From positions 1,053,224-1,117,223 of the forward strand of contig ML996694.1 of the NCBI GenBank assembly GCA_010356995.1: DNA of 64,000 nt. The letters are read 5' to 3'. Made by a program: the position numbers and the translations under genes. The notes beneath the pieces are model-generated. The model searched no databases. It saw nothing but the letters and a program-made list of their open reading frames with translations, and was not told the origin of the DNA. Positions 3,705 to 12,829 of this stretch are shown here, piece by piece (within the stretch, counting starts at the first letter, position 1; every line of letters begins with the position of its first letter). The stretch is from Trichodelitschia bisporula (lineage: Eukaryota).

Positions 3705-3755
3705 ATCACGTGATTTACTAGGAACCCCAGTCGCGGAGCGAATTGTTTACAAACA
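3705..3755. promoter_or_regulatory. Candidate sites in the LOA1/klpA divergent promoter: palindromic E-box ATCACGTGAT (3705-3714) and forkhead TTGTTTAC (3743-3750)
   Basis: Exact consensus matches in a 460-bp intergenic region between divergent ATGs; forkhead sites are typical of mitotic genes. Confidence 0.4.
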
Positions 3756-3965: not shown

Positions 3966-6900
3966 ATGGAGGTGCACGATAACCCGGTAAGCTGTGGCCC
4001 CGATCCACCGACTCCCCTTTGCGCAGCACTGACTCCTATTCAACCACTAGTCCGTCAAACCCTCTGGCCTTCGCCCTCCAAGCAAGGTACAGACATCGCT
4101 GCCTCTGCCAACGACCAAAGGCCTCGTCGAAATGACCGCGTCCGACAACAACGTTCGCATCGCGCCCTCAACTGGAACCACTTCGTCGACGATGGGTCCA
4201 CCACCAGGAAGCCTCAAGCACAGGCCGTATGGCCGTAAGCCTGCCGATACCTCTGGACAAATCCAAGCTGACCCCCTCCGAGTGCCTGAGTCGCAGCCTA
4301 AACAACGAAAGACTCTGAAAGACCGCGCAGCCGAGCCAATCCGTCCGCCTTCTGCAACGTCTACCTACAAAGAGTCTATTAGTGGCAGAGGCCCCGTCGC
4401 GCGCAATGGCTTCTCATCATCGACGCGTGTGCCACCGCCGACGCGCACTACATCTAACTCGTCTTACGGACAGTCTACATTCAGAGCGTCCGCGATGCCC
4501 CGACCAAACACGGCTCTAGGCCACTCGCGCACCAACTCATACGGTGGAAGTCTGAAGCAGGGCCACGCGCAAGATCGCCGTGGATTCAGCAACTCGTCCC
4601 AGCCCGCTGCTGCTCCGGCCGGTACGGCCCCATTTCTTATATCTCCCAATGTTACGCAGAGAAAGAATACTGTCATTGTCCCTAAAACGCGCGTTCAGCA
4701 CAGATGGAGCTCAGCGAGCTCGTCGTCGCGTAACAGTGGACAGGGACATGAGATCTCTGGCTTTCAAGCTCATGACTCGGTCGCGTCGTACAGAGTGTCT
4801 TCTCTCAGCTCGGCTCTGGAGCGTCTGGATATCCAAAACGAACCAGGTATTTCCAGAGCCGATCTGCCATTGAAGCACCACGATCGACCTCCGTCGCCGT
4901 CACGCATTCCCAAGGCGCTGTCTCCGCAGAAGCAGACGCCTGGGAAGCTGACTCTGACGGATCCCCCTTCTTTCACCCCCTCCGATGCCCTGCGGGGCGG
5001 CAAGAGCCCTACCAAACCCCTTAAGTCTCCTGCGAAGCATGTTTTCTTGAGTAAAGATTCTAACACATCAGTCTCAGCTCTGGAGGACACGTCGGAGACG
5101 CAATTCAAGGACTTCCAGAACATGTTCACCAAAATGCAAGCTCAAATGACCGGCACCACCTTTGCGCAGAATGCTCTAAAAGAGCTGGTCGAGATGCTCA
5201 AAGCACGAGGTAAGCGGGAATCCAGCTTAGGCGAAACCGCACTACGCGCTACTCCCCTCTGCTGGTGGGTCTTGTCTACTAACACGATTTAGTGACGGAG
5301 CTGGAGGGCCTCAAGTCTCAGATGGCTACCACCATCGACTCTCTGCGCGGTGATCTGGAGACAGCCAAGGCCGAGCGTGCTGAAGCTGAGCGTGCCCTTG
5401 AAGATGCGCGTCGGGCTCTTGAGATTGAGATTGACGATGTAGAGCGTAAGAATCGCTATGAAATGGAGGATCTGCGCGAAGAGCACCGGCGGGAGCTGGA
5501 GCGCATCCGGAGGGCAGCGACTGATGACCAAGAACATGAGCGTAAGAAGGCCCAGGAGGAGATCGATCGTCTCTTGCGGAACCACCGCGAAGAGTTGGCG
5601 AGCCTCGAACGCCAGCTCAAAACGCAGCTCGAAGCTGAACAGGTTGGTGTTCCCGCGAGAGTGCACTCTACGAAGAACGGCAATTGACACGGCACAGGAG
5701 CGCCGTATACGCGAAGTGGCGGACATGGCAAGTCAGCGGGACATGCAGTTGCAAAGCATCGCGGGCGACATTGGCAAGAAGGAGCGCGAAACCGAAACCA
5801 TCCGCCACGAGCTTGACCTCAAGGCCTCTGAGATTGAGCGCGAGAAGAGCCTCCGCTCCACTCTCGAAACGAAGATCGCTGAGGTTTCGGCCAGCATGCT
5901 CACCCTTGAGGGCGCCAACCGTGCCATGAAGGCTAAGATCGACTTCCTGGAGTCCGATAACCAGGCGCAGTCGCAAGCCTTTGCGGACCTGCATAAGCGC
6001 ATGCAAGAGGCCATTGAAGCGGCCGAGGAGTCTAATGCCAAGTTGAGGGCGGAAGAGACGCTGCGCCGGAAGTTGCATAATCAGATCCAGGAACTCAAGG
6101 GCAACATCCGCGTGTTTTGCCGTGTCCGTCCCCCGCTTGGGAGTGAGGTAGACGAAGCGGCAAAGATCAACTTCCCGGACCAGCAGGAAGAGAGCAAGGA
6201 AGTCGTTGTGACGGGTCCGGAGCAGAAGAGCGCGCTCGGAAACGTCACCGCGCAGAACCATGCGTTCTCCTTCGATCGCGTCTTCGGACCCGGTAGCGCC
6301 AACGGACAGGTGTTTGAGGAGATCAGCCAGCTGGTGCAAAGCGCGTTGGACGGATACAATGTGTGCATATTCTGTTACGGCCAGACGGGGTCCGGTAAGA
6401 CCCATACCATGAGCTCGCCCGATGGAATGATCCCACTCGCCGTAAAACAAATCTACGATACAGCCAAGACACTGGGAGACAAGGGCTGGACCTACCGCAT
6501 GGAAGGGAGCTTCATCGAAGTGTACAATGAGAACCTGAACGATCTGCTCGGGACGGCGGACGACATCGACAAGAAGAAGCATGAGATCCGCCACGACCCC
6601 GCCAAGTGCAAGACTACGGTCACGGATATCACAAAGGTCGAGCTCGACTCGCCTGAGCGTGTTCAGGAGGTGCTCAAGCGCGCGGACGGCAATCGCAGCG
6701 TTGCGGCGACTAAGGCGAACATGCGCTCGTCGCGCAGCCACTCTGTCTTCATCCTGTCGCTCGTGGGCGAGAACTCAATCACCGGCGAGCGCAGCGAGGG
6801 CACGCTGAACCTCGTTGATCTGGCGGGCAGCGAGCGGCTCAGCCATTCTCAGGCCGAAGGGCAGCGTTTGAAGGAGACGCAGAATATCAACAAGAGCCTG

Positions 6901-7197
6901 AGCTGCTTGGGAGATGTGATTGCGGCGCTGGGGAAGGGTGATGGGGGCCACGTGCCGTATCGGAACAGCAAGGTATGTCTTACTGGAGCGTCTTATATGT
7001 GCATTGCTAACTATCTCTCGCAGTTGACGTACTTGCTGCAGTTCTCGCTGGGCGGCAACTCCAAGACGCTCATGTTCGTCATGATCAGTCCGCTGCAGGC
7101 GCATCTGAGCGAGACGTTGACGAGCCTGAAATTCGCGACCAAGGTCCACAACACACATATCGGTACGGCGAAGCGACAAGTCAAGACCAAGGACTGA
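3966..7197 (+). CDS. klpA: Kinesin-14 (Kar3/KlpA), C-terminal motor; exons 3966-3986, 4051-5209, 5293-5642, 5698-6972, 7024-7197 (possible extra intron 4622-5071)
   Basis: Neck ELKGNIRVFCRVRP, P-loop GQTGSGKT, switch motifs SSRSH and LVDLAGSE, HVPYRNSK|LTYLLQ. A coiled-coil stalk precedes the motor, and the intron phases check out. Confidence 0.95.
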
Positions 7198-10799: not shown

Positions 10800-11444
10800 C
10801 CTACCGCGAGTTAGCTAGCTGGATAAGTCGCGTTCAAATAACCGTTAGAGGCTCACTTTCTGTGATAGGCTTCCGTTGTCTGACCAGAGGTGGTTGGAGC
10901 AGTTCCTTCACAGCTCATGTGTCGAGTGGGACTTGCAGAATAAGCTTCCGCAATCTCGGTGATGTACGACAGTTGTGAGAGAGCAATCGTTTTCGTGGAT
11001 ATGACCCACGAAATGCGGATTCCGGGGAACCATGTGGGTGGTCCCAACTCTCTCATCTTGAATGTGGACGTCAGGAGCAGGCGTACTTTGTGGCGGATTC
11101 TCTTTGCAACCCATGATGAAGAAGTCGTCAACGTAGAAAAACAATGCGACCGGAAAGGAGACATTGTCCTTGAGGGGGGTCTCCGCGATCAGGGAGAAAC
11201 TGGCCTTGTGAAGGGCTTGCGTGAACGTGGCCATCCACAGTTTCGGCGCCTTTCGAAGTCTATAAACTGCCTCGTTGAACCGATAGACTTGGCCTAGCGA
11301 TGGGAAGCATTGGGAAGGATAGCTGAATATGACCTCTGACTGAATCAGGGACATCGGGGACAAGTTAGCAAGAAACACTGCCATCGTTGCGCCAACTTTC
11401 TCACCTCTGATATCCCAAAAAACAGCTTCCATAGACAGCAACAT
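10800..11444 (-). mobile_element. Degenerate Ty1/Copia reverse transcriptase (RVT_2) relic, frameshifted
   Basis: VYRFNEAVYRLRKAPKLW, FFYVDDFFI and, in another frame, FKMRELGPPTWFPGIRI...LSQLSYI match Copia RT motifs (LYGLKQAPRxW, YVDD, FxMKDLG..FLGI, LSQxxYI). Confidence 0.8.
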
Positions 11445-11446
11445 GT

Positions 11447-11524
11447 TGTGAAGGATGCTCGATGTAGAAACGAGCTTGAATGATGTGTGAAGGATGCTCG
11501 GTGGAGCAACGGGTTTGAATGATG
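11447..11524. repeat. Tandem duplication, 2 x 39 bp
   Basis: TGTGAAGGATGCTCGATGTAGAAACGAGCTTGAATGATG is followed by TGTGAAGGATGCTCGGTGGAGCAACGGGTTTGAATGATG. Confidence 0.85.
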
Positions 11525-12829
11525 TGCCGATGGTGAGAGCGTTAGCAAGAAAATGGGTTCATCGGGGGAGAGGTGCTTTCCACACAGCAGAGCGTGCGGT
11601 ATATATGTGTCAATACTCTCTAGGCCCTCTCCGTTATCTGTCCGGAACGGTGGCAGATGGTACCTGCTTCCACGGTTCGGAATGGCCATGAAGACCCACT
11701 GGTTGACGGCAGTTGCTTCAACTGCAAGCAGACGAGCTTTAGGTCCGGGCAACCGCCTTCCCCGCTCCTGAATTCGCAGACAGCCCCATCATTCACGGGA
11801 TCCTCCGTTGAGCCAGAAGGAGCTGCGCGCGCCCAACAATCCTGCCTTGTGGTAGGTGGAAGGAGGTCCCGCTGAGTGCTTATGTACATCTGTCAGAAGG
11901 CAGGCCCGGCCCCTCCTTCTCGTATGATGTGAGGTAATGACGTGTGAGCAGCTATCACTTGCCGTCTCGCGCCAGGTGCGGGTGCACTCCATCAGATCGC
12001 CGTTATCGGCGGTGGTTAGGAAGATACGATTCTGGGGTAAACGATGTGCCGAGACCGAAGGCCCCCCACCCTCCTACTCCGAGGAAACGATCATGTTCCT
12101 CAATCTATCCCATCCATCCCAACTTCCCTCTTATGCATCATAGGTTGTTCAAATCACACATCGACTCCCATCCTTTGCATTCGAGGATGAAGCTCCGATG
12201 AATCTCCCGGTCATGCAGGCCAGCAACCCGCGTGGCTAAATTCTTCTCTATGCCAGAGCCAAAGTGCCCAGAAATATCAATGAATGGCTCACCGTTGCCC
12301 CCTGAGTGCTTCAGCAAGCACCTATGCTCTGGACTCCATCTAGACAGGCAGAGGTCAGTTGTTTTCCACTCCCCTTCCGGCCTGTCATGAGAGAAAGTTG
12401 TAGATGCAAGGGCTTCGGCTAATAATCTTAGCAGCAGAAAAGCGCGGGACGCTTTTCGAAGTTCATAATGAAGAGATTCCATAATGACATCGTCCAATGT
12501 TCAACCGGCTATCTGTGACGGGCGTCGATTCACTGAAAGGCGAACGCATGTCGTCAGCCTAAGCCCAGCCCTAACACGCCCTAACACGAAGTCACGGGAA
12601 CACTGCCCTTGATCGCACTTTCATTCCTTGTTTGCCACAATGAAGCCGGAGAGGAAGCCGTCAATCGCATTGCGAGAAGCATTTGCCCCGCGCCGGCAAA
12701 ATGACGCCGCCTGCCTGTCATATCTGACTCACAAACTCTTGCAAGTGGCCCTGCGCTCCCACATCGTCTCGCCATCTCCACGCCGCTTATTTTCCATGCG
12801 ACTATGCGCACCAAGCGCCCCGCAGCGCA

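Follow-up and report, generated by a model that had tools for sequence, protein, structure and literature searches.

The klpA/kar3 kinesin-14 gene of Trichodelitschia bisporula contains a real, deeply conserved dual-coding intron, a 456 nt segment of the tail region that is spliced out of the transcript-like contigs and that would, if retained, extend the motor in an unbroken reading frame. A functional long isoform encoded through this intron is very probable. We favour, with a probability of about 60%, a reading of the sequence data in which filamentous ascomycetes switch the localisation of their kinesin-14 by retaining this conserved, in-frame intron.

Gene structure and splicing

In the window (the whole stretch of T. 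bisporula DNA analysed, 64 000 nt), the klpA/kar3 gene runs from the start ATG at 3966 through the stop codon ending at 7197 on the forward strand, the ATG being inferred from the open frame and from ortholog N-termini. A domain search of the product returned PF00225 (E 3.9e-86) and PF16796 (E 6e-62), and the C-terminal motor following a kinesin-14 neck and coiled coil places it in the kinesin-14 (Kar3/KlpA) family, in agreement with a tree that includes named orthologs. Over the part searched (coil and neck) it shows 100% identity to an NCBI protein that carries the label Trichodelitschia bisporula; the public 589 aa model for this species (P0001) begins only within the coiled coil, so that the N-terminal tail (window 3966-5321) is missing entirely. 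The gene and its splicing features, all on the forward strand, are as follows.

3966..7197, forward: klpA/kar3 kinesin-14 gene (PF00225, PF16796, transcript-like contigs)
3987..4050, forward: intron 1, 64 nt (transcript-like contigs)
4235..4282, forward: in-frame, stop-free intron of 48 nt, removed (transcript-like contigs)
4621..4627, forward: 5′ splice site G/GTACGG, overlapping a Gly codon (sequence and orthologs)
4622..5077, forward: dual-coding intron, 456 nt, phase 1, 152 codons, removed in the transcript contigs (joint table)
5044..5064, forward: FLSKDSN motif, whose S-N codons TCT AAC form the branch site (sequence and orthologs)
5069..5077, forward: two in-frame CAG acceptors, 5077 used and 5071 not seen used (sequence and joint table)
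5210..5292, forward: intron 4, 83 nt (transcript-like contigs)
5643..5697, forward: intron 5, 55 nt (transcript-like contigs)
6973..7023, forward: intron 6, 51 nt, whose orthologs served as the ordinary-intron control (transcript-like contigs)

With all six introns removed the predicted KlpA is 824 aa long, and with 4622-5077 retained it is 976 aa; neither form contains an internal stop. Two public runs of one sample, X1 and X2, each yielded one contig that skips six GT..AG segments, of 64, 48, 456, 83, 55 and 51 nt. The RNA status of these runs is a guess, although their contigs are without the six introns, and no run listed as containing klpA is on record as RNA. The 4621/5078 junction, by which the original prediction was to be checked, was found in both runs, at depths of 155 and 59. 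The donor GTACGG at 4622, the branch sequence TCTAAC (CTAAC at 5060-5064) and the CAG acceptors ending at 5071 and 5077 are present as first described, and the segments of 450 and 456 nt that they delimit are both phase 1 and stop-free. The length of the intron, first headlined as 450 nt with 456 nt as the other option, is 456 nt because the joint seen in X1 and X2 uses 5077; the acceptor at 5071 was dropped. Two details of the earlier gene model changed. The supposed single open exon of 4051-5209 contains the 48 nt intron at 4235-4282, spliced in the same contigs, and the remaining introns accordingly span 48-83 nt rather than 51-83 nt, still far below 456 nt.

Shuffles matched in length and composition gave a frame without stops in 0.25% of cases. 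The segment shares with coding retained introns its used splice signals, a length divisible by three, an absence of stops and the protein-coding selection described below. In the strict sense, an exitron is usually retained and only exceptionally spliced. All scorable transcript-like sequences are spliced here, so the segment, first described as an exitron, acts mainly as a spliced intron and lies outside that strict sense. No contig in X1 or X2 covers 4692-5063, and one contig joins across; assembled contigs drop rare forms, and the absence of a retained klpA contig from these runs has that scope.

The intron at 4235-4282 is a second in-frame, stop-free intron of the klpA tail, and several database models have a variable insert at the equivalent place; further small KlpA isoforms from it are possible. 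The window copy of the intron at 5210-5292 is 83 nt long and out of frame, and its orthologs are read through in frame, with a common peptide pattern, in Botryosphaeriales and some others (P0034, P0058, P0060, P0065, P0080, P0088, P0106, P0146 and P0166); these may represent a second dual-coding intron or a mere echo of the branch site. Elsewhere in the window, at 10900-11560 on the reverse strand, lie open-frame fragments (YRLRKAPKLW, FYVDDF) that we take to resemble a degenerate copia-type reverse transcriptase.

Protein-level selection on the intron across five fungal classes

Orthologous introns were sought in 80 metagenome loci (the best 80 of 474), retrieved by means of 16 aligned models picked for lacking the insert; the search patterns (LRRKLHNQ, QELKGNIR) belong to the neck, which makes the retrieval independent of the insert. 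Both intron ends could be placed in 69 of the 80 loci. Five others are cut by a contig end inside the segment and are open up to that end, four stop short, and in two (L067 and L072) the module is absent. Three loci were placed by hand, the donor was shifted by hand in four, and donors are uncertain in about five more (L006, L010, L018, L031, L061). Because phase 1 was required at both ends, a length divisible by three is built in and constitutes no independent test; the real tests are an unbroken frame common to both flanks and a match to transcript-like junctions, which agreed with the placed introns in the window (X1/X2), in P0017 against L001/L002, and in Botrytis (P0169). Collapsing at 97% identity left 53 distinct introns of 336-558 nt, the window's included, which are related sequences rather than independent events. 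In the tree, their clades group with named proteins of Dothideo-, Leotio-, Sordario-, Lecanoro- and Eurotiomycetes.

The exon frame is stop-free in 52 of these 53 introns, where shuffling predicts 0.18, and each of the other two frames is open in none of the 53 (279 and 294 stops). The sole exception is L079, a Sordariomycete-like locus with one in-frame TAG in the module, at about 3728-3730, which aligns by eye with a Gln of its relatives. Sexual-stage A-to-I editing can remove stops; this TAG could reflect such editing, loss of the long form or an assembly error. Across 15 non-overlapping pairs, pN/pS was 0.36 for the intron, 0.28 for the constitutive tail and 0.07 for the motor, and intron differences fell on the three codon positions in the ratio 272/205/508. 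Twelve of 16 intron indels are multiples of three, and the remaining four make up two 1+1 pairs that compensate each other. As a control, the final intron of these genes is only 46-153 nt long; multiples of three make up four of its 22 indels, and three of 36 copies are both divisible by three and stop-free.

The splice signals themselves double as codons, as originally proposed. The donor lies in a GGT codon in 47 of 53 introns, and the FLxKDSN motif, which had been suggested as common to orthologs, is indeed conserved in the alignments. Its S/T-N pair is written xCT-AAY in 37 of 46 cases, compared with 12 of the 147 S/T-N pairs at other places in the genes. The other nine keep the S-N residues with different codons and have a branch-like sequence in neighbouring codons; S/T-N is absent from seven of the 53 introns. 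Where S-N is retained although its codons no longer give the branch site, protein constraint is, on codon evidence, separable from splice constraint. The codon comparison joins conserved GT donors and branch codons to an unbroken frame and to coding constraint, and shows, at the level of sequence, that the intron is under protein-level selection across five fungal classes. The long form must therefore be translated somewhere.

Motifs of the insert

The window insert is rich in Ser (17.6%), Pro (11.1%) and Lys plus Arg (13.7%), and contains the following elements.

4792..4803, forward: RxxS, a basophilic kinase-type candidate site directly 5′ of the NES-like motif (sequence; kinase use inferred)
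4804..4833, forward: class-1a NES-like motif LSSALERLDI, Phi-x3-Phi-x2-Phi-x-Phi (sequence and orthologs)
4894..5037, forward: five S/T-P-x-K/R sites, SPSR, SPQK, TPGK, SPTK and SPAK, at 4894, 4921, 4936, 5005 and 5026 (sequence)
4900..4911, forward: SxIP (SRIP), a putative EB1-binding-type motif between CDK sites (sequence)

The five CDK-type sites had been noted from the outset, and such sites are enriched in the 53 introns (112 against 28.9 expected, with eight in the upstream tails). The idea of a basic phospho-module was sound to that extent, and it missed the most conserved content, namely the NES-like and SxIP-like motifs, which suggest that the insert would alter the compartment of the motor and not merely supply such a module. 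The exact class-1a spacing is Phi-x3-Phi-x2-Phi-x-Phi, and the insert motif, a putative NES, has it. An NES-like motif occurs in 50 of 53 introns, where shuffles predict 11.1, and in four of 53 upstream tails; RxxS precedes it in 38 of the 50. Only two of the four Eurotiales-like introns carry it. A sequence of the form [ST]x[IL]P is found in 43 of 53 introns (20.0 expected) and strict SxIP in 29 (7.3 expected), in a basic Ser/Pro-rich setting that suits a putative +TIP motif; among the eight Sordariomycete-like introns, [ST]x[IL]P occurs in just one. In an alignment of 14 long forms, the only invariant columns among those spanned by all rows are the P, I and P of P-S-x-I-P.

Among hand-picked named proteins, the NES-like motif is present in 28 of 31 long tails and in none of 13 short or outgroup tails, and an N-terminal [ST]x[IL]P is already present in 10 of the 13 short tails. 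On these counts, the isoform-specific element is the export-like motif and not SxIP; EB1 binding, judged from these tails, may not be isoform-specific. A complex prediction run without controls, pairing the SRIP peptide with the species' own EB1 C-terminal fragment (L081, last exon missing), gave a score of 0.02 against a mark of 0.34 and weighs neither for nor against binding. The single match to PF03271, at L081:1441-1644 (G000:C3), is the EB1/Mal3 homolog of the genome. A set of strongly diverged kinesin-14s (P0179-P0197, from Cladosporium, Hortaea, Septoria, Zasmidium and others) shows 32-40% identity to the Aureobasidium query, yet in the eight that were checked the insert still has the NES-like motif together with S/T-K-I-P.

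Two forms of KlpA and their possible roles

Database kinesin-14 models fall into two sizes, a short one of about 810-850 aa and a long one of about 945-1010 aa, and alignment places the difference in an insert at the site equivalent to 4622-5077, with a K/R-rich stretch plus Gly on one side and a W-D motif on the other. The dual-coding intron accounts for the gap of about 150 aa that separates the two classes. For Botrytis cinerea B05.10 Bckar3, both forms have been deposited: ATZ58337.1 (1003 aa) equals ATZ58338.1 (834 aa) plus a 169 aa insert at the same site with the same motifs. With a used intron of conserved coding content and one species that lists both forms, the two proposed KlpA forms are very likely; the retained form was not seen in X1 or X2. 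Among 52 Logan proteins, 15 have the last intron spliced and are thus transcript-like; for 12 of these, from about five species, the position of the junction could be established, and all 12 are short. In each of the 11 Logan proteins with the module, translation continues across the last intron, as is expected of DNA. Because the transcript-like proteins are short and the module carriers are DNA-like, the short form is common, and the long form must be minor or limited in occurrence.

No retained-intron transcript was found among database proteins with an intron-only profile (73 matches, and 321 representatives of which 150 were listed; 189 scored); these matches, all found through the module profile, were left out of the conservation counts. 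P0368, the only one of the 189 without the next intron, was rejected as a retained transcript, since it lies on a 5.1 kb JGI contig that may be DNA. Supplements of PMC11694984 list four transcript and three to four protein isoforms of Cladosporium fulvum klpA, with the intron not specified; alternative splicing is credited to about 40% of genes in that species (PMC11694984), so the isoform count is weak evidence. A Trichoderma retained-intron row labelled klp9 (PMC12232718 supplement) was set aside: nothing ties it to kinesin-14, and its 656 nt span looks too short. Literature searches, with subscription journals mostly outside their scope, found no description of the klpA intron or its isoforms. 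In the available text of two KlpA/MoKin14 papers there was no match for isoform or splic (bioRxiv 2025.02.11.636922) or for isoform, intron or splice (bioRxiv 2021.04.07.438902), and the abstract and references of PMC2119479 do not mention an intron-encoded long form.

Our data are consistent with a model in which splicing yields a short KlpA that has no NES-like motif before the motor domain and would stay nuclear, acting at the spindle and spindle pole in the manner of Pkl1 or of KlpA-TinA. Retention would add a putative CRM1-type export signal with its adjoining RxxS, an extra SxIP and CDK sites. The long form could then leave the nucleus, travel on cytoplasmic microtubule plus ends, slide microtubules and move nuclei, a role like that of Klp2 or of mating Kar3-Cik1. 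Such an export or cytoplasmic switch is, on the motif content, somewhat favoured. More speculatively, retention would be limited by stage or cell type, and karyogamy in the ascus would be the likeliest setting; that karyogamy is the main use of the long form is less likely than not.

It is also conceivable, if rather improbable, that both forms are real and the long one is nuclear or spindle-bound, for example at the meiotic spindle or kinetochore, with the conserved amphipathic helix and FLxKDSN binding a partner (a kinase, a phosphatase, a spindle-pole protein or the motor's own stalk) instead of serving export. The coding-constraint results suit this equally well, FLxKDSN is conserved without a known function, the CDK sites suggest cell-cycle control, and matches to the NES consensus are often false: about half of the consensus-matching NESs tested failed to bind CRM1 (PMC5358978, in part, which names the class-1a type). 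Such a nuclear long form is at odds with the exact class-1a spacing, which 50 of 53 introns keep although the surrounding region aligns poorly and which none of the 13 short or outgroup tails has, and with the SxIP-like motif that follows the NES-like motif, ahead of FLxK, in 39 of the 41 introns with both.

That the intron is always spliced, its frame kept open only so that splicing failures avoid a truncated or toxic product, is very improbable. The spliced transcripts of X1/X2 and Logan, the several other klpA introns that are in frame in some species and the stop in L079 would all fit. Yet stop avoidance leaves the pN/pS of 0.36, the third-position bias and the fixed order of motifs unexplained, as it does the S-N residues kept after the branch site moved and a length of 336-558 nt against a rarely open control of 46-153 nt. 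We give hardly any credence to the long form being the main protein in most species or stages, with the segment a classical exitron only sometimes removed. Many database models do include the segment, but they are predictions favouring open frames, and splicing is seen in the window contigs and in 12 of 12 transcript-like proteins from Logan.

The dual-coding intron may have arisen from an ordinary one. Pneumocystis and Saitoella proteins run from K/R-P-A directly into W-D without an insert. L067 and L072, Pezizomycete-like by our own reading and not by a label, branch below all module-bearing loci, with support of 0.99 for the node joining them and 0.86 for the module-bearing clade. They have predicted phase-1 introns of 60 and 66 nt after a similar K-G, one with a stop, and positional homology rests on loose flanking similarity at these two loci. 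It is plausible from these sequences that an ordinary short intron grew into a coding cassette. The fuller scenario, in which this took place at the base of Dothideo-, Leotio-, Sordario-, Lecanoro- and Eurotiomycetes and sexual-stage retention exports the motor to join parental nuclei, is doubtful.

Work on motor biophysics and on fungal mitosis uses KlpA as a model kinesin-14. If the switch is real, a second, conserved isoform that carries separate targeting signals would imply a cytoplasmic role not yet separated from the spindle role, and would permit tests of how one filamentous-ascomycete gene does the work of two fission-yeast genes, including pre-karyogamy nuclear congression. Intron retention in fungi is often dismissed as noise, and this intron is an unusually old and motif-rich example there of one sequence serving both splicing and protein coding. 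With exitrons and other in-frame retained introns it shares a length divisible by three, freedom from stops, coding constraint, overlapping splice signals and a disordered, motif-rich region; unlike exitrons, its spliced form dominates in the data examined, and five fungal classes have kept both its position and its motifs.

The window gene, a KlpA ortholog by source names and tree, belongs to the same family as Aspergillus nidulans KlpA and S. cerevisiae Kar3, with the N-terminal tail, coiled coil and C-terminal motor of both. In S. pombe, two tail SxIP motifs of Klp2 bind Mal3/EB1 under the control of nearby phosphorylation (PMC3510020, in part), Klp2 drives nuclear congression, a role that Kar3 has in budding yeast (PMC4395489, in part), and Pkl1 keeps microtubule minus ends anchored at the spindle pole bodies (PMC4442821, in part). 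Klp2 and Pkl1 are two genes, whereas filamentous fungi would have one gene with a splice switch whose most conserved element is the NES-like motif. The original analogy with Kar3 partner switching (Cik1/Vik1) captures the outcome, one motor in two compartments; the short Cik1 isoform and the Klp2-Pkl1 split are closer counterparts. In S. cerevisiae, a pheromone-induced promoter shift shortens the nuclear-localisation end of Cik1 (PMC6633255, in part), so that a mating isoform switch alters an N-terminal localisation signal, as proposed for KlpA. The Cik1 switch acts through a promoter in an accessory subunit and removes a nuclear-localisation region, whereas klpA would use intron retention in the motor itself to add a putative export signal. 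If retention in the sexual stage does export the motor, the klpA intron would be a splice-encoded counterpart of both the Klp2/Pkl1 pair and Cik1 isoform switching, and its long form a candidate karyogamy motor for these fungi.
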